DNA of 20,000 nucleotides, taken from an uncultured virus (IMG/VR IMGVR_UViG_3300023175_001302). Lineage: Duplodnaviria > Heunggongvirae > Uroviricota > Caudoviricetes. Of this stretch, positions 621 through 19,998 are shown in pieces. The stretch is from the IMG/VR virus record IMGVR_UViG_3300023175_001302. One strand, 5' to 3'. Under the pieces are notes generated by a model, which was not told where the DNA came from, made no database searches, and was given only the letters and a program-made list of their open reading frames with translations. How positions within the stretch are numbered: the first letter of the stretch is position 1; each line of letters starts with the position of its first letter. Both the position numbers and the translations under genes were made by a program.

Positions 621-649
621 ATAATAACATTTTTAGTATCGGAAGTCAA
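621..649 (-). promoter_or_regulatory. sigma70-type promoter for uvsW, probably giving a leaderless mRNA
   Basis: TTGACT (649-644), 17-nt spacer ending TGT, TATTAT (626-621). The ATG begins after only 6 intervening nt and there is no Shine-Dalgarno. Confidence 0.65.
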
Positions 650-654
650 TATAT

Positions 655-702
655 AAAAAGACGGATACCAGGGAGAGAAAGGAGAAGACCCAGTATCCGT
701 CT
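655..702 (-). terminator. Intrinsic terminator after the AAA+ ATPase gene, with a large pyrimidine loop
   Basis: Minus strand reads AGACGGATAC-TGGG-[TCTTCTCCTTTCTCT]-CCCTG-GTATCCGTCT-TTTT. Perfect 10-bp arms at 693-702 and 659-668, followed by a T-run. Confidence 0.75.
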
Positions 703-716
703 ACTTGTGAAGCGAG

Positions 717-1691
717 TTATGCCCGCTTCATACAAGTTGTTTCTGCGAAACGCTGCCAGCGTGTCGGGTTCATCTTACACAAGTCTGCAAGTTTTTGAGC
801 CATACGCAGCGAGATTTCACGCATTTTAGATTGATTATTTTCTAAGAACTTTACAATTTCATCCTCTTGTTCTTTACTTAGTCCTTTAGTATCGAACAGA
901 CCACCGTCACGTGCGATTTGCTTAATACGCAAAATCTTTTCACGTGTAGTGTCCATTGTCAAATCAAGATAGTGACAACGAGACATGATAGCTTCTAAGT
1001 GATCCTTGATTTTAGTTGAACGCACATTGTCAAACTTCAAGTTAGTCACAAAGATAACTGAACCTTTGAACTCGAAAGTATCAGGAACTCCTTCACGGCG
1101 AAGAAAGTGAGAGTCAGAGTTCCAAGAAATCTTACGCTTCTTACCGCTATCAAGTGCTGCCTTCAGAATGTTTAGTGCATCCTCGTTGAACAAGATGCTA
1201 TCACAATCGTCAAGCACAACAACTGACTTCGGGTCAGAATACTTGTACAGTGTAGCATATAGACCAATCGGTGACATTGTACCTTTGACAAATGTGTGAC
1301 GTAGCGGACGCTCTGCCATTACGTCAAATAGAGAATCTTTCTCAATGACTTGTTCAATGCCATATGTCTTACCGACACCAGGAGGTCCTGAGACAACCAT
1401 GCCACGCACGATACCGTCAAGTGTAGCAGCAGTCATTTCATCAAGAATGTCGAAACGTTCAGCAATGCGATTCATTACTTGTTCATCTGTTTCGTCATGT
1501 TCACAAACAACCTCAACATCCTCAGGCTTTACTTTGATACGCATCTTAGCACGACCAAACTCAGTTTCAGAACCGTCAACTGTAATAAATGTTGAACCGT
1601 CTTTTGCTTCTTTTATTTCTTGTACAACAGGAAAGATACCTGCAATTTCTTGATTGCGATAAAAACCTGAAGTGATTTGAACTATAGACAT
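717..1691 (-). CDS. AAA+ family ATPase of unknown function (putative early gene)
   Basis: Walker A GPPGVGKT, Walker B VVVLDDCD, sensor-1-like SVIFVTN, Arg-finger-like AIMSR. SD AAGGA upstream. Confidence 0.8.
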   Translation of the reverse strand: MSIVQITSGFYRNQEIAGIFPVVQEIKEAKDGSTFITVDGSETEFGRAKMRIKVKPEDVEVVCEHDETDEQVMNRIAERFDILDEMTAATLDGIVRGMVVSGPPGVGKTYGIEQVIEKDSLFDVMAERPLRHTFVKGTMSPIGLYATLYKYSDPKSVVVLDDCDSILFNEDALNILKAALDSGKKRKISWNSDSHFLRREGVPDTFEFKGSVIFVTNLKFDNVRSTKIKDHLEAIMSRCHYLDLTMDTTREKILRIKQIARDGGLFDTKGLSKEQEDEIVKFLENNQSKMREISLRMAQKLADLCKMNPTRWQRFAETTCMKRA

Positions 1692-1708
1692 AATCTTCCT
1701 TTCTCTCT

Positions 1709-1750
1709 TGATTACATTTATACTATAAAGCGATTCGTTATATTTGTCAA
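1709..1750 (-). promoter_or_regulatory. Early promoter P1 (sigma70 type, GANTC in spacer)
   Basis: TTGACA (1750-1745), 17 nt containing CGAATCG, TATAGT (1727-1722), 6 nt, GTAATCA. Same layout as P2 and P3. Confidence 0.85.
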
Positions 1751-3117: not shown

Positions 3118-3158
3118 TGATTACTTAATTAATATAGCATGATTCTCAGTATTGTCAA
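3118..3158 (-). promoter_or_regulatory. Early promoter P3 (sigma70 type, GANTC in spacer)
   Basis: TTGACA (3158-3153), 16 nt containing AGAATCA and ending TGC, TATATT (3136-3131), 6 nt, GTAATCA. Confidence 0.8.
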
Positions 3159-7425: not shown

Positions 7426-7875
7426 TTATGCCTCATAAATTGCTGAGTTTGCTCCGTGTTCTGAACATTCACACGAAACGCACCAACATCGGTTATCTGT
7501 CATATTACGAACCAGTTCGTCTGCCTGTTTCCATGCATGATAGGCAAAGCGTTCTGCTCCGACACCATCAAATATAGTAAGTTCAGCAATACCATCTGAT
7601 TCTAGTTCTTTTAATTTATATAGCATAGGATCATTTTTGTCAACCACTACTTTATGATCAAAGTTATCTTCTAACCATGCTTTAAGCGGTTTAAGTCCGC
7701 CAAAGTCTACAGCCCAATTACGATGGTCTAGTTCATCGCACCCAAATGTAAATTTGAATGCGAGACTGTATCCATGTAAAAATCTACAATGTGAGTGGTC
7801 TGCATGTGGTTGACGAAAGACTGCTGATAATCCTATGTTGTGTCCATATGTTTTTGTAGAAAGATATTTAGCCAT
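7426..7875 (-). CDS. queD: QueD / 6-pyruvoyl-tetrahydropterin synthase family (T-fold) protein
   Basis: FRQPHADHSHCRFLHGY (CxxxHG[H/Y]), VDFGGLK, FDHK and terminal ECSEHGANSA motifs. Confidence 0.85.
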   Translation of the reverse strand: MAKYLSTKTYGHNIGLSAVFRQPHADHSHCRFLHGYSLAFKFTFGCDELDHRNWAVDFGGLKPLKAWLEDNFDHKVVVDKNDPMLYKLKELESDGIAELTIFDGVGAERFAYHAWKQADELVRNMTDNRCWCVSCECSEHGANSAIYEA

Positions 7876-14238: not shown

Positions 14239-15378
14239 TTATGCGTTACCTGATGTTGCTCCTGCACGTTCACGTGCTTGTGTTAAGTCTCCAATATCTG
14301 TTGTATTACCTAGCGTTTGTATTGTAAATCTATGAATATCTTGCCCATATGTAGTTTGTGTAGGTTTACCACTAGTAAATACACCATATGTATCATTTGA
14401 TGTTCCTGTGTGTTGAATAAGTCCAGTAGGTCCTATCAAATCACCAAAATCTGTAGCATGTCCCGGTGATGCTATAGTAACATAGTCCATTCTATTCAAG
14501 TAACCGGCAGAAGTCGATGTTCCACCGGAAAATACACCTCGAGTTTCATCTGCTAGTGCTGCTATATGTCTTCTGGCTATAGTTAAATCACCAAAGTCTT
14601 GTGAGTTTCCAGCTGATGCGATTGTTAAATAGTCTATTGTATCTTCATAGACAAAATTTGAAATGGCTCCACCACCGTATAGACCATAAGTACCATCTCC
14701 GCATCCGCCATCTCCATGGCCTCTAGCTACAGTTAGATCACCATGATCAACTGCATGTGCGGCTGTAGCAAATGTTATTTGGTCATTTTGAAGTACCCAG
14801 CTGGTACCACCTTCATCTCCGCCCATTATAACACCATATGTGCCATCACTTGCAGAACCTGGCTCTATACGTTGAGTGGATAAGTATCTACTAACCCCAC
14901 CATCTAAATGTCTAGCAAACTCAACTGCAGATCCGGTTGTAGAAATATTTGCAACAAATACGGAAGTTCCACCACCACCTGCAATATATGCATATGTACC
15001 GTCAGACATTGCGGTCATACCAGTTCTAACGATTGGCAGTTCGCCCCAATCAGTAGCAGTCCCACCAGTATTGATATCAAAATAATCTATGGTTTTATAC
15101 GTAGACACCCCGCTACCACCAGCAACTAAAGCCCTATCGCCGTACCAGTTAACGGCTGGAACATTAGCCGCTGCAATATGCGATAAGTCATCGCTCAAAT
15201 CACCAACATCTACGGGTACATCACTAACCTTAGCGATAGGAATCCCACCAGGAGTTTCGCCATCGTGTAAAATAATTCTATTGTTTGTGATGTCAACAGT
15301 AATTTCTGCTAACTCACCAGTAAATGCTGAGTGGTCTGTAGCTGTACCTCTACGAAATTGAATTGAATATGATGGCAT
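14239..15378 (-). CDS. Tail fibre/adhesin-like protein: Mtd-like N-terminal module plus six-repeat propeller
   Basis: IQFRRGTAT.H..FTG..AEITVD...IILHDG.TPGG N-terminus; about six repeats of roughly 48 aa ending (I/M)DYxTIAsxGnaxDFGDL. Confidence 0.7.
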   Translation of the reverse strand: MPSYSIQFRRGTATDHSAFTGELAEITVDITNNRIILHDGETPGGIPIAKVSDVPVDVGDLSDDLSHIAAANVPAVNWYGDRALVAGGSGVSTYKTIDYFDINTGGTATDWGELPIVRTGMTAMSDGTYAYIAGGGGTSVFVANISTTGSAVEFARHLDGGVSRYLSTQRIEPGSASDGTYGVIMGGDEGGTSWVLQNDQITFATAAHAVDHGDLTVARGHGDGGCGDGTYGLYGGGAISNFVYEDTIDYLTIASAGNSQDFGDLTIARRHIAALADETRGVFSGGTSTSAGYLNRMDYVTIASPGHATDFGDLIGPTGLIQHTGTSNDTYGVFTSGKPTQTTYGQDIHRFTIQTLGNTTDIGDLTQARERAGATSGNA

Positions 15379-15380
15379 CT

Positions 15381-17456
15381 TTAACTTCCTATTGAATTAA
15401 TATCGGTTTTATCAATTGTATTTGTGGTATTATCATACGGACTTGAAAGACCAGAAGAATATCCAGAGAAACCATTTTGACTTGTAGGTGCCTGTGGGGT
15501 TGCTTGTGATAATCCATGACCTGCGCTTAAAGCAGTTAATGTACCATCTGTTCTTGTAGAAGATACATCAGCAAATACATAGTCTCCGTATGTACCCAAT
15601 AACTCACCATTTGGATCATTATGTGGGATTTTAGCTACAAAAGAAGAGTTATAGTTTGTTGGATCAGACGGCATAGTAGAACCAGATATTAATAACTGAT
15701 TATTAGAATCTATATCGGCTCCATTAATAAAAATATCATTGTATCCGTAAGAATTTGATGCTATTGTTGTCAAACCAACATCTGATAATAATTCACCTGT
15801 AGTATCATACTTCAATATATATGTTGCTTGCGACCAAGCACTTACAGATACTACGATATTTCCGTCACTAAGTGGATTAATTCCTGCCACTCTCCAACTA
15901 GAAGATGGATGCAGACTGTTTGTATACCTCTTAATCCAAATTATACTACCGTCACTTGGATTAAGTTTAATTAATACAGCGTTATCAGAATTAGTAGAAA
16001 TATTTCTACCTTTGCCTCCCAATAGTAAATTACCCTCACCATCTATTTCTATACAATTACATTGTATATTATGAAGTGTATCTGCAGCAGATATATGATA
16101 TCCTGTAACAATACTACCGTTAGTCGAATTTAATTTAACAAGAAGAGTTTGCCCCCATCCACTGCTAGGAGAATAATCTCCTATGAACCAAACATCTCCA
16201 TTAGAATCGGTAACAGATCCTCTCCAATCGTTGTAATTGTAACTAGAATTATATATAACTTGGTGCCATGACATGGAACCAGATGAATCATATTTTGCTA
16301 CCACACCATTATGCGTGGAGCTAAAACTTCCGCTACCCATATACGATCCAGATTTGCCACCAACAAATGCGTTATCATTAGAATCTAAAGATACCGTATG
16401 CCATTCTTCATTATAACCACCATTATAAAATTTTTGCCATACAAAGCTACCATCAACTGTTGACATCTTAGCAAGCAGAGCTATATCGCCTTGAGTAGCA
16501 TTTACATCTTCGGTTAAACCTGCCAACACAATGCTTCCATCTGAGTAAATTGCGGTAGAGTGAATTCTGTTAGCACCTGATGTTGTTCCGAAAGATTTAT
16601 TATATACAATAGTACCGTTAGGCTCTATTTTAGTGACTGCGGACTTAGACGGATATCCTGCCTGACCAACTGCGTATATATTATCATCCGAATCTTTTGT
16701 AACATCATAATAAGAATTATATTCATAAGTTATGTTTAAATCATCCGATCTTATAACCCATGCATTATCAATTAAACCTTCAGTAGACACTGGGGCTACA
16801 GGAGCAACATAAGCATCTGAACCAACATTTATTTGTCCGCCCATACCAACACCGTGTACACCACAGTAATACATTAAGTTCAATGGTCTAGGAGATGGAA
16901 CTGTAAATGTAACTGTTGCACCAGCTTGTCCTGCTGTGCCTAATGTAGTAACGCCACTTGTAAACGCTGTCTGTCCCATATCTGTAGTGAATTGTAGAGG
17001 ATGCCCAGAGTTTGAAGCGTCACTCATATCAAATATATAAGTGTAACCAGTTTGTAGTGTAATGTGTGGGTTTTCTGTAAATTCTGTATCGCCCGCAGTA
17101 TCATTTCTTAGATAGAAAACATCACCAGGACCGCCTGGAATTCCTCTACCATTATATCTGAAACCAGATGCTACTGTAACTGTGTAGTTTACAATAGGCG
17201 ATGTAGATGTTAGTGGTAATTCAGTACCTTGTACATCATATGTGTATCCACCCATCAAACCTTCACTATCAGTGTATTCACTAATATCTGTTTTAACATC
17301 TTCTAGTGCGGCAATAAGAAATCCACCAGGTGTTACCCCATCATGTACAACTAATCTCTTTTTATCTGTATCGACCGTTACTTCGCCTTCTGCTCCGACA
17401 AAATTTGCGTGTTCTGCTGAAGTACCACGTCTTAGTTTCACTCTATATGCTGGCAT
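15381..17456 (-). CDS. Tail fibre/adhesin-like protein: Mtd-like N-terminus, cupredoxin-like domain and beta-propeller
   Basis: KLRRGTSAEH..FVG.EGEVTVDTD; YTYIFDMSDASNSGHPL...YYCGVHGVGMGG; repeats of type DSxDNxxVxG...vxKyDxxGxxxW. Confidence 0.7.
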   Translation of the reverse strand: MPAYRVKLRRGTSAEHANFVGAEGEVTVDTDKKRLVVHDGVTPGGFLIAALEDVKTDISEYTDSEGLMGGYTYDVQGTELPLTSTSPIVNYTVTVASGFRYNGRGIPGGPGDVFYLRNDTAGDTEFTENPHITLQTGYTYIFDMSDASNSGHPLQFTTDMGQTAFTSGVTTLGTAGQAGATVTFTVPSPRPLNLMYYCGVHGVGMGGQINVGSDAYVAPVAPVSTEGLIDNAWVIRSDDLNITYEYNSYYDVTKDSDDNIYAVGQAGYPSKSAVTKIEPNGTIVYNKSFGTTSGANRIHSTAIYSDGSIVLAGLTEDVNATQGDIALLAKMSTVDGSFVWQKFYNGGYNEEWHTVSLDSNDNAFVGGKSGSYMGSGSFSSTHNGVVAKYDSSGSMSWHQVIYNSSYNYNDWRGSVTDSNGDVWFIGDYSPSSGWGQTLLVKLNSTNGSIVTGYHISAADTLHNIQCNCIEIDGEGNLLLGGKGRNISTNSDNAVLIKLNPSDGSIIWIKRYTNSLHPSSSWRVAGINPLSDGNIVVSVSAWSQATYILKYDTTGELLSDVGLTTIASNSYGYNDIFINGADIDSNNQLLISGSTMPSDPTNYNSSFVAKIPHNDPNGELLGTYGDYVFADVSSTRTDGTLTALSAGHGLSQATPQAPTSQNGFSGYSSGLSSPYDNTTNTIDKTDINSIGS

Positions 17457-17480
17457 ATTTAATCTCCTAGTTATATACCG

Positions 17481-17488
17481 TATTTATT
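17481..17488 (-). promoter_or_regulatory. Putative late promoter AATAAATA
   Basis: ATAAATA core about 25 nt upstream of the ATG at 17456, ahead of an AGGAG SD. Confidence 0.5.
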
Positions 17489-17521
17489 TCATTTTTTATT
17501 CTGTTTATATCATATTATTAT

Positions 17522-19273
17522 TTAAATCAAACCCAACACTGTTGCGTCAACATCTACTAGTGTTACACTTGCTGTGGTTCCAGATGTTCTTCTCCATACT
17601 GTTGCCCATATGCCTTGAACTGTGCCTGGATTATCAAATGTTTTATCTGCCCATAAACTCCAGTTAACATCGTCATGTGAAATATAGTGTGCTGAATATC
17701 CTGTAGTTGGATTAAAGTATAACGCTGACCACCATGAACTCCTTGAACCCGGATTGAATTTTGTACTCCATCCATATGTACCACTTTCATCAGACGCAGA
17801 GTTATTAACACTATTGCCGTCGCCTCTAAGTTCTGTAGCACTAAGCATATCAGCACTTCCTTCACTCGCATATGTAGTAGTCGCAGTGAAAGCCCAACCG
17901 CCTAGTTTTCTATTCATTATGCCACCGTCCATATCGTCATATTTTACTTTAAACCAAACACCTTCGTTATTACCAGGAGAAACTGCAGCCAAGAAGTTAG
18001 CATTTGGTACTACACCGGCAAAGGTATCACCACCACTGTTAAGTGACCACTTGTAAGTGTTAGCATCATAAGTAGCACCAACATTGTAACTTGAATTTCT
18101 AAGTGAATATCCATCGTCCCATGTTCCGCTAAATGCTGAAACTGAAGTTGATGTAACAGAAGCAGGGCCTCTGACCCATACATATCCAGGTAATGTATTT
18201 GTACTTGATGTACCATTCCATTCACAATACCCAGCACTAGTTGTTTTTGGAGTATTACCACCTGAAGCGCCAAAACCAAACCCAGAGTCAGAGCGAGTTC
18301 CATGATTAGAACCAAATGTGATTCCATTATTATCTAACGGACAACCAATCCAAGCTCCTCCACGACCGACCGACGCAAACCCCTCTGCAGTTGTTGAGTT
18401 TGAAGCATCAGAACTCCACATACCTATACCATATTTTTGAACATACCTTTCAAACAAGCCTGTATTTGTAAATGTATTTCCATTATATTCAAATGCAGTG
18501 TCGTGATATAATACATTAGTAGTATAAGATGGTGATGTAGAATTAGCAGCGACTATATTATTTTGTCCATTAGCCGCAGTAGCTCCACCAGAAGCAGTAA
18601 TAGCTTCAGCAAATGTTCTTTCTGTTGTGAAATTCATAATAGGAGGATATTTAGCAGTTCCATCTTGGTGCATTTCCATCATAAGATGATCAAACTTTAT
18701 ATTATTCCATGTAGCATACTTTGAAAAATTACCTGAAGTTAAATCATCATCTGTTTCATTATGCAGTGTTGTATTTGTCCATAGCGGATTTCCAGATGTC
18801 ATGTCTCCTTGATTATGAACTTTTAATAAAAGATACCAGTCATTTCCGTCTACATAATTAAATTTACAATATGCTTGGAATGGAGTGCCATTTGATATAG
18901 AATTATCAAACCAATACATTCCATCAGTTGTAATACCAGCTGCTCTTAATGCTGTTATATCACTAGCTGGACTTGCTGAAGAAGAGCCTAGTCCAGATCC
19001 TGCTGTACCAGAAACTTGAACTGTTGGTTCTACTGGAGTACCATTATGTATTTCCGATAATAGATTACCTAAAACACCAGTACTATCTTGTAGTTGGCTA
19101 ACATCTGTAATAAGATCACTAAATTTTGGCACTGCTTTGCCACCATTTGTAGTACCATCATGTACTACAAGTGTATTAGTGTCTGTAGTTACAACTACTT
19201 CCCCTTCCAATCCAGTAAAGGATGCATTTTCTGCTGTTGTCCCTCTTCTAAATTGTATCGCATATGCTACCAT
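17522..19273 (-). CDS. Tail fibre/adhesin-like protein: Mtd-like N-terminus plus fibrinogen-C/intelectin-like domain
   Basis: IQFRRGTTAEN..FTG.EGEVVV.TD; SPASD...TDGMYWF...PFQAYC...DGNDWYLLLK resembles the start of a fibrinogen-related domain. AGGAG SD. Confidence 0.7.
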   Translation of the reverse strand: MVAYAIQFRRGTTAENASFTGLEGEVVVTTDTNTLVVHDGTTNGGKAVPKFSDLITDVSQLQDSTGVLGNLLSEIHNGTPVEPTVQVSGTAGSGLGSSSASPASDITALRAAGITTDGMYWFDNSISNGTPFQAYCKFNYVDGNDWYLLLKVHNQGDMTSGNPLWTNTTLHNETDDDLTSGNFSKYATWNNIKFDHLMMEMHQDGTAKYPPIMNFTTERTFAEAITASGGATAANGQNNIVAANSTSPSYTTNVLYHDTAFEYNGNTFTNTGLFERYVQKYGIGMWSSDASNSTTAEGFASVGRGGAWIGCPLDNNGITFGSNHGTRSDSGFGFGASGGNTPKTTSAGYCEWNGTSSTNTLPGYVWVRGPASVTSTSVSAFSGTWDDGYSLRNSSYNVGATYDANTYKWSLNSGGDTFAGVVPNANFLAAVSPGNNEGVWFKVKYDDMDGGIMNRKLGGWAFTATTTYASEGSADMLSATELRGDGNSVNNSASDESGTYGWSTKFNPGSRSSWWSALYFNPTTGYSAHYISHDDVNWSLWADKTFDNPGTVQGIWATVWRRTSGTTASVTLVDVDATVLGLI

Positions 19274-19320
19274 TTATTTTCTCCTAAATTAAATCTTTAT
19301 CATTCCCATGGCGAAATTAG

Positions 19321-19998
19321 TCATTGTATACTGGTTCCTAAATCAATTAATGTGTTAGAATTCACAGATGCATATGCTTGTGCTGAATTAGTTATTAGCG
19401 CAACTTCATCAGAGAAATCAGGCTGTGTCGCACCATATACAGTTACACTTGTTGGATATCTATAAGCAGAGTCAGAACTACCCAACTGTAGATATCTCAA
19501 TTCAGTTCCATGTACATATGAAGCACCTAAATCATATTCAAGTGTGAACGGTAGTGTATCCAGATTAGTGTGTTCACTATTTTGTGGACTCTGAGCGTTA
19601 TTTACAAGGGCAATCGTTGGTGATTGGCTTGTAGCTGTACTACCAGTACCATACCAGTTTGTGATTGTTTGTCCAGTAATAAAGTCAGTTGCACCATTTT
19701 CACCAGTAAATGAAATTTCTGTTACTTGTGCTTGTGTACCACTACTAACACTGTTTAATACTACTTTCATATATCTGTATGATGTAGATGTAGGAGTAGT
19801 TTCAGTCACAGTACCTTGATATGGGTATCTGAATATCACGACACCAGATCCACCGTTACCACCTGTACTTGAAGAGCTACTACCAGAAGCATAAGAGCCA
19901 CCGCCGCCGCCACCTGTATTTGCTGTAGCATTTGCGCCATTTCCGGAACCGTTTGAACCAGCTCCACCGCCGCCAAGTCCGCCAGCTCCGCCAGCTCC
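19321..19998 (-). CDS. Glycine-rich tail-fibre-like protein, C-terminal part (start lies beyond the right edge)
   Basis: The frame is open from the window edge: GAGGAGGLGGGGAG...ANTGGGGGG...GGNGGSGVVIFRY, then a beta-rich domain with YRYMKVV and LRYLQL. The GTG start at 19839 in the ORF track is internal. Confidence 0.75.
   Translation of the reverse strand, partial: GAGGAGGLGGGGAGSNGSGNGANATANTGGGGGGSYASGSSSSSTGGNGGSGVVIFRYPYQGTVTETTPTSTSYRYMKVVLNSVSSGTQAQVTEISFTGENGATDFITGQTITNWYGTGSTATSQSPTIALVNNAQSPQNSEHTNLDTLPFTLEYDLGASYVHGTELRYLQLGSSDSAYRYPTSVTVYGATQPDFSDEVALITNSAQAYASVNSNTLIDLGTSIQ

Follow-up and report, generated by a model that had tools for sequence, protein, structure and literature searches.

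The hairpin that follows a phage gene for an AAA+ ATPase carries in its loop a pyrimidine stretch complementary to the ribosome-binding site (RBS) of the same gene. Does the 3' end of this mRNA pair with its own translation start, is the loop directed at other messages, or is the match fortuitous? The gene lies in a virus record of 73 kb (G000) that is 13% complete; the window, the final stretch of 20,000 nucleotides in this record, contains the gene and encodes terminase, SSB, UvsY, UvsX and ribonucleotide reductase. By terminase, the closest cultured relatives are PA5oct-like jumbo phages (57% identity), and two close relatives, G001 and G002, are 342-kb records, the completeness of the two being 92% and 100%. 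Elsewhere in the window, an ORF between UvsX and the UvsY region (7426-7875, − strand) encodes what we take to be a relative of QueD/6-pyruvoyl-tetrahydropterin synthase. Four consecutive proteins are encoded at 14239-19839 (− strand), three of which share a short N-terminal motif recognized by eye (IQFRRGT/VKLRRGT) followed by differing sugar-binding- or propeller-like bodies; they are probably tail fibre or decoration proteins.

The ATPase matches PHROG 1250 over its full length (E 4e-92) and T4 nrdC.10 with 32% identity (E 2e-50). Its Walker A (GPPGxGK) and Walker B (DDCD) motifs are invariant across 30 sequences. The structure model predicts an SH3-like N-terminal beta barrel (residues 1-66) followed by an AAA+ module (residues ~72-324) that comes nearest to NorQ/CbbQ (Z 13.0, rmsd 3.7, 212 aligned residues), tied with many other AAA+ clades. 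The best match of the N-terminal domain (Z 5.3) is SH3-like, and the matches include the KOW domains of Spt5 and S4e; this similarity is too weak for RNA binding to be claimed. In the accessible text of PMC1524935, nrdC.10 is noted merely as an AAA ATPase, and the terms ATPase and thioredoxin did not lead to the gene in the accessible part of the PA5oct transcriptome paper. The features of the locus are listed in Table 1.

Table 1. Features of the ATPase locus in window coordinates
Feature	Position	Strand	Basis or remark
Promoter of the downstream DNA helicase gene (helicase ATG at 614)	621..649	−	
Intrinsic-terminator-like hairpin with a 14-bp stem, a 16-nt loop and a short U run	655..702	−	folding and stem covariation
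All-pyrimidine loop; 11-nt anti-RBS = 683-673	673..688	−	anti-RBS predicted 92-96% unpaired
Hairpin whose loop contains the stop codon, immediately before the terminator	703..737	−	predicted
324-aa AAA+ ATPase, PHROG 1250, T4 nrdC.10 orthologue	717..1691	−	profile and sequence matches, structure model
24-nt ATPase mRNA leader, GTAATCA early-cassette type, putative 5' end	1692..1715	−	
Target site: purine tract including the SD, −16 to −6 of the ATG	1697..1707	−	pairing extendable to 1693-1696
ATPase promoter, host sigma70-type, TTGACA-17-TATAGT (11/12)	1722..1750	−	pattern match

Transcription of the ATPase gene probably starts at 1715. The spacer of its promoter contains the word GAATC (1736-1732), which is common to the early-type promoters of this phage. 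In the window such promoters lie at 1722-1750, 2754-2782 and 3131-3158 (− strand), each with GAATC between −35 and −10 and a leader beginning with GTAATCA, and the same pattern occurs 8-9 times in the 73-kb record, 15 times in G001 and 19 times in G002. GAATC is possibly an activator site or the mark of a recombination cassette. One early-promoter gene (2288-2722, − strand) encodes an LPD29 polyvalent-protein domain (PF18847, E 1.7e-8). Just behind the terminator the helicase gene has a promoter of its own, which speaks for a monocistronic ATPase mRNA, and promoter, terminator and downstream promoter together point to a single-gene message of 1.07 kb. The + strand has among the matches listed a weak promoter-like site (1717-1744, 9/12) directed away from the gene. 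Parts of the window are contained in 24 RNA runs, all as assembled contigs; the aligned RNA contigs of four runs are mostly from relatives at 90-99% identity, including close relatives of the ATPase gene. One RNA-run contig covers 300-898 and hence crosses the terminator, which either DNA or read-through could explain.

In the stem of the terminator hairpin, 702-689 pairs with 672-659, and the U run (about 5 U) occupies 658-655. The hairpin has a predicted energy of −20.8 kcal/mol (z −3.85), a stability reached by none of 200 shuffles. Across 13 sequences, 96.5% of the stem positions are paired and nine of the 14 pairs have changed on both sides, a result that none of 500 shuffles matched. A G+C-rich covarying stem, a U run and a position behind the gene are features of an intrinsic terminator, and termination would be expected here. 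The loop is atypically long. The first-pass annotation had described it as an all-pyrimidine loop of 15 nt; the composition stands, but the length is 16 nt, the same hairpin having been drawn one pair out of register. The stop-codon hairpin in front of it recurs in close relatives with a long-loop terminator and is weaker or absent in relatives with a short loop; it could couple the arrival of ribosomes to the folding of the tail. Rfam gave no match over 655-720 at E values up to 10.

The loop segment 673-683 (GAGAGAAAGGA on the + strand) is the reverse complement of 1697-1707, so that the eleven contiguous complementary nucleotides over the SD reported earlier, at −16 to −6 of the ATG, were confirmed, as was the extension to 14 bp, the 11-bp helix gaining 3-4 bp beyond a 2-nt bulge. 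Loop and 24-nt leader together reach −18.1 kcal/mol, and the predicted costs of opening the loop site and the leader site are 0.4 and 1.3 kcal/mol, respectively. The 73-kb record contains no other 11-nt complement of the loop on either strand. Of 20,000 shuffles each, pairing at least as stable was obtained with 37 (mononucleotide) and 263 (dinucleotide) shuffled leaders, with 487 and 1377 shuffled loops, respectively, with 506 shuffles of the purine tract only and with 721 in which AGGA was held fixed. The match therefore exceeds composition-matched shuffles, but modestly (0.2-7% of shuffles); it is suggestive and not decisive, and relatives are needed to decide. Folding of the whole mRNA speaks neither for nor against the pairing, which as a pseudoknot cannot be displayed there; when a nested loop-leader helix is forced, the terminator melts and the structure lies 2.4 kcal/mol above the optimum.

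Homologous loci were collected in four scans that kept 80 of 97, 80 of 175, 73 of 73 and 80 of 83 relatives. Both gene ends were present in 279 loci of the relatives kept, which comprise 127 distinct loci; 122 were analysed after three cultured phages and two loci with mis-called starts (L203 and L261) were left out. A self-match was defined as a Watson-Crick run of at least 6 nt with an energy of −8 kcal/mol or lower, at least half unpaired and at most 110 nt from the stop codon. Start codons were assigned by rule; the thresholds were chosen after the data had been seen, and the controls were treated identically. An exposed tail segment antisense to the SD or start region of its own gene was found in 61 of the 122 loci, as opposed to three of 291 control genes from G000-G002 that have a non-coding tail and two of 187 controls with a purine SD. 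The energy rule was satisfied by antisense segments in 67 of 122 loci and by direct repeats in five, and a complement of the SD region of at least 8 nt occurs in the 100-nt tail of 28 loci versus the ~950-nt coding region of four. The terminator loop holds 27 of the self-matches and a separate or unassigned hairpin another 27; the remaining seven are beside the stop codon. With few exceptions, the helices of the 61 loci cover the SD or the start codon. Among loci with at least 66% identity, 25 of 27 long-loop hairpins fit their own start. Eight tails (L269, L270, L271, L272, L285, L280, L299 and L305) have two antisense sites within 110 nt of the stop codon, one near it and the other in the loop of a later hairpin.

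These counts bear on the possibility that the match has no RNA function. Purine and pyrimidine tracts, being of low complexity, may have matched by chance, or the leader may have been copied in inverted form, either as a relic of template switching or as a DNA site. The 1-7% of composition-matched shuffles that equal the match at this locus, and the half of the relatives that have none, are what such an origin would allow. Against it stand the excess over the controls (61/122 versus 3/291), the preponderance of antisense over direct repeats (67 versus 5), the display of the match in hairpin loops with covarying stems and its re-matching to several leader words. With both sides weighed, an origin of this kind is extremely improbable.

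The re-matching provides the main argument that loop and leader belong together. The paired word differs between lineages (GAGAGAAAGGA, GAGAAAGAGA, AGAGAATCA, AGGAGTGAGA, CGGAGTGAGAAA, AGGAGCTAAAA, TAGGAGTTCA and AAGGAGCGAA) and tracks the leader, including letters outside the SD. In one clade of ten loci (L024, L025, L032, L036-L038, L040, L045, L047 and L048) the paired word is (T)GAGTGAGA, located on the start codon and the first codons; there the SD varies but the loop does not. These first codons (Met-Ser-Glu) form an N-terminal extension that is absent from the other homologues, and RNA pairing may here have shaped the coding start. A cognate-pair test, which covered all loci and also those lacking a match, drew a single locus from each cluster at 90, 80 or 70% identity (50, 27 and 11 clusters). 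Tails paired better with their own start than with the starts of other lineages (median p 0.001; worst draw at 70% identity 0.08); measured by run length, p was 0.007 (worst 0.48). In the 49 loci that combine GGAG in the leader with CTCC in the tail, the adjoining base is complementary in 41 (30 C, 11 T). Eight independent pairs taken from the tree scored 4.2 in the same and 0.0 in the opposite direction, a result that is underpowered and not significant (median p 0.125), and for the other word tests there were too few independent pairs. The predicted covariation of loop and leader across homologous loci is thereby borne out, and with it the proposal that the 3' end pairs with the RBS of its own gene gains support. 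Natural compensatory change appears to back the pairing, and a self-directed interaction, whatever its geometry, is very probable.

The leader of the window's clade, GTAATCA, is the common early-promoter leader in G000-G002, and sister lineages have GGAG-type ATPase leaders. The distribution suggests, on an unrooted tree, that the leader was swapped and that the loop was then re-matched in some lineages and lost in others. Two loci would still be unmatched: the long CU-rich terminator loops of L021 (2609-2680) and L240 (2479-2550) miss their own leaders and resemble complements of another, GGAG-type leader. Compensation may be lagging in these two phages, or the target may lie elsewhere in the genome, which is possible since both records are fragments; a search for longer records of the L021 exception yielded just the two known contigs. 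In all, 61 of the 122 loci have no self-match, and it is missing in several distant clades. Even among the 29 closest loci, 16 have a plain loop of 3-8 nt, which indicates that the self-match is dispensable in some phages. A loop match was found in none of the 15 cultured phages examined (T4, PA5oct, Acj9, VAP7, K471, PM2, F86, avDM7, X1, 121Q, CBB, SNUABM_50, WFL6982, CC31 and TSW001). The only cultured candidate is PA5oct (L082, 3140-3175), where the hairpin after the orthologue repeats seven leader nucleotides in its 5' arm and complements eight in its 3' arm; this stem-arm match is possibly due to chance.

A loop complementary to an SD could also work more broadly, as an anti-SD sRNA or decoy that acts on host mRNAs or on those of other early phage genes; the fit to its own leader would then be a side effect of a shared SD sequence. 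The first-pass annotation had considered a 3'-derived sRNA of this kind and had pointed to the leaders it called P2 and P3. Their complementarity to the loop does exist (−11.1 and −10.6 kcal/mol, with 7 and 5 contiguous nt) but lies at background level, the mean of the shuffled purine tract being −12.7, and they were ruled out as real targets. Apart from the ATPase leader, early leaders of the 73-kb record pair with the loop at −14.6, −13.1 and −11.1, so that weaker cross-talk with a few of them, at best −14.6, may occur, and the L021 and L240 loops, which look complementary to a different leader, also fit a broader role. When all starts of a record were ranked by their pairing with the loop, however, the gene's own start came first in four of six records: 1 of 103 in G000, 1 of 448 in G001, tied 1 of 41 in G004 and 1 of 39 in G005. 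In G002 it was third of 441 by energy and first by run length, and in G003, which contains the L021 exception, it was 34th of 52. G001 and G002 each possess a single terminator with a long pyrimidine loop, at the ATPase gene. In G001 the loop pairs with the ATPase leader at −17.1 and with the best of the 15 early-type promoters found at −10.8, and in G002 the ATPase leader is the best of 19; the loop thus fits the ATPase leader and not the shared early leader. The fixed anti-SD core for other genes that marks CU-loop sRNAs was not seen: the loop word varies with the gene's own leader, and several loops lack a CCUCC-like core and follow letters outside the SD (AGAGAATCA, and GAGTGAGA at the start codon). 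The same architecture was not found at other genes of G000, G001 and G002; G000 has one further match on the + strand. Own-start rank and the fit to the ATPase leader in both 342-kb relatives make a general early-gene or host sRNA highly improbable, and judged from these rankings the target of the element is the gene that carries it.

How the self-directed pairing acts is a separate matter. In the most likely model, a fold-back of the 3' end onto the 5' end, like that of icaR in Staphylococcus aureus, limits translation to nascent mRNA. Host sigma70 polymerase would start near 1715 and synthesize the single-gene message. As long as the tail is unmade, the leader would be open, its predicted opening cost being small, and ribosomes would load. 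Once the message is complete, the terminator would fold, with a stem attested by covariation and a loop of 16 pyrimidines predicted to be held unpaired. The loop would then dock at −16 to −6 through 11-14 bp as a pseudoknot, mainly within one molecule, with a gain of about −18 kcal/mol before the cost of loop closure; the complementarity is evident in the DNA, and covariation argues for the pairing. A pseudoknot is sterically plausible because the helix starts 8 nt from the putative 5' end, whose short free end can thread. Initiation would halt and decay may follow, as extrapolated from icaR and from Gill et al. That the loop pairs in cis with the RBS of the finished mRNA, blocks ribosome loading and caps the amount of ATPase made per early transcript is our preferred reading and probably correct, although coupling of transcription to translation and ribosome traffic could leave the site open.

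Precedents exist for the single elements of the model. The 3'UTR of icaR contains an anti-SD motif that pairs with the SD of its own mRNA (PMC3868564, accessible text). As in icaR, the phage anti-SD lies downstream of the stop codon and is complementary to the SD of the same gene (11 contiguous nt), and in the phage promoter, ATPase gene and terminator are contiguous, which bears on whether leader and anti-SD share one transcript. The icaR 3'UTR is long and its interacting region of ~40 nt is cut by RNase III; cis and trans action were left undecided there too, according to the accessible text of that study (PMC3868564). The phage tail, by contrast, measures ~60 nt, displays the anti-RBS in the terminator loop itself, forms a helix of 8-14 bp and belongs to an early ATPase gene for which the argument rests on covariation rather than on experiment. 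A helix of 11-14 bp is probably too short for RNase III. In the type I toxin mRNAs hok and aapA, a 3' anti-SD element is likewise directed against the SD and the full-length mRNA is silenced; as described in the available portion of PMC6733600, these mRNAs encode small toxins, are silenced while nascent as well, become active by 3' trimming and are countered by an antisense antitoxin. The phage mRNA instead encodes a 324-aa ATPase and no small toxic peptide ORF, its nascent leader is predicted to be open, and no antitoxin RNA is evident at the locus, where the + strand offers the weak 9/12 site at 1717-1744. In Bacillus subtilis, an 8-nt anti-SD has been shown to pair in vivo with an RBS that lies hundreds of bases upstream of it and to act as a repressing element; such distal words block initiation and accelerate decay, and genes are depleted of them (Gill et al. 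2025, PMC12697547, in the part available). Whereas B. subtilis selects against them (PMC12697547, same part), these phages keep one on a hairpin, which suggests that it is selected for.

The same pairing could take place in trans. The partner of a newly made ATPase leader would then be a stable hairpin fragment from a 3' end or another copy of the message, and the accumulation of such partners would create a dose-dependent negative feedback that senses transcript or genome copy number. All covariation results suit this geometry as well as cis pairing, and a stable 3' hairpin would resist 3' exonucleases. A loop atop a strong stem is the usual seed for pairing in trans, and the CU-rich terminator loop of LhrC from Listeria monocytogenes binds the SD of lapB (PMC4132741, accessible portion). 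As described there, LhrC occurs as a free sRNA in multiple copies, has three CU sites and acts on another gene (PMC4132741); the phage loop differs in being single, in lying within the mRNA and in tracking its own leader. RNAIII and certain alphaproteobacterial RNAs are further sRNAs with CU loops. The icaR mRNA dimerizes in vitro, which favours trans action, but an ectopically expressed icaR 3'UTR left expression unchanged, as stated in the accessible text of PMC3868564. At the phage locus an internal promoter or processing site is not evident, and tethering provides the cis partner at a high local concentration. Action in trans is therefore unlikely, although it deserves to be kept in mind. 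An extended version, in which the mRNA counts itself, is decidedly unlikely: the stable hairpin fragment would silence new ATPase messages and so hold output steady when genome copies or co-infecting phages become more numerous, the pairing would be switched by ribosomes moving across the stop-codon hairpin or by the ATPase itself with its AAA+ motor and SH3/KOW-like barrel, and the loop would be re-tuned whenever recombination of early cassettes brings a new leader. If true, it would constitute a natural, repeatedly evolved antisense feedback loop within a terminator.

Pairing of the two ends might also be real without being repressive and might protect the message or aid ribosome recycling. 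Precedent comes from the hbs mRNA of B. subtilis, in which 14 nt of pairing between the 5' and 3' UTRs shields against RNase Y (PMC7821165, in the part accessible), and the purine-rich single-stranded phage leader is a plausible nuclease target. Yet in nearly all 61 matches the helix sits on the SD or start codon, where pairing normally blocks binding of the 30S subunit, and distal anti-SD words lowered expression (PMC12697547, in the part available). A protective role is very unlikely.

In placing the control of translation at the SD, the fold-back model resembles phage T4, where RegB cuts GGAG in the shut-off of early mRNAs and RBS hairpins act at e, soc, 49 and I-TevI (PMC3014915, accessible text). 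It differs in that the T4 hairpins are local and RegB cleaves, and T4 nrdC.10 lacks the tail match of the window locus. No RegB match was found in the two near-complete relatives by a search that detected the T4 positive control; one may speculate that the fold-back is used for this gene in place of SD cleavage by RegB. Pairing of a phage mRNA tail with its own RBS was not found in a full-text search of largely open-access literature, confined to main texts, that included the accessible text of PMC5737381, PMC3014915 and PMC7318152; the hairpin could be contained in the supplementary motif lists of structured-RNA screens. What is added here, namely display in a terminator loop, genome-wide specificity and re-matching after a change of leader, is well supported by comparison of the sequences.

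Few natural long-range pairings between the 3' and 5' ends of an mRNA have been described in bacteria. An entire family of jumbo phages from aquatic habitats appears to keep an anti-SD displayed on a hairpin and to re-match it upon leader change. The locus offers a compact, portable test case of ~50 nt in which a terminator would act as a timer that restricts translation to nascent mRNA, possibly also a part for synthetic biology. It further hints that the dose of the widespread, uncharacterised nrdC.10 ATPase matters in early infection.
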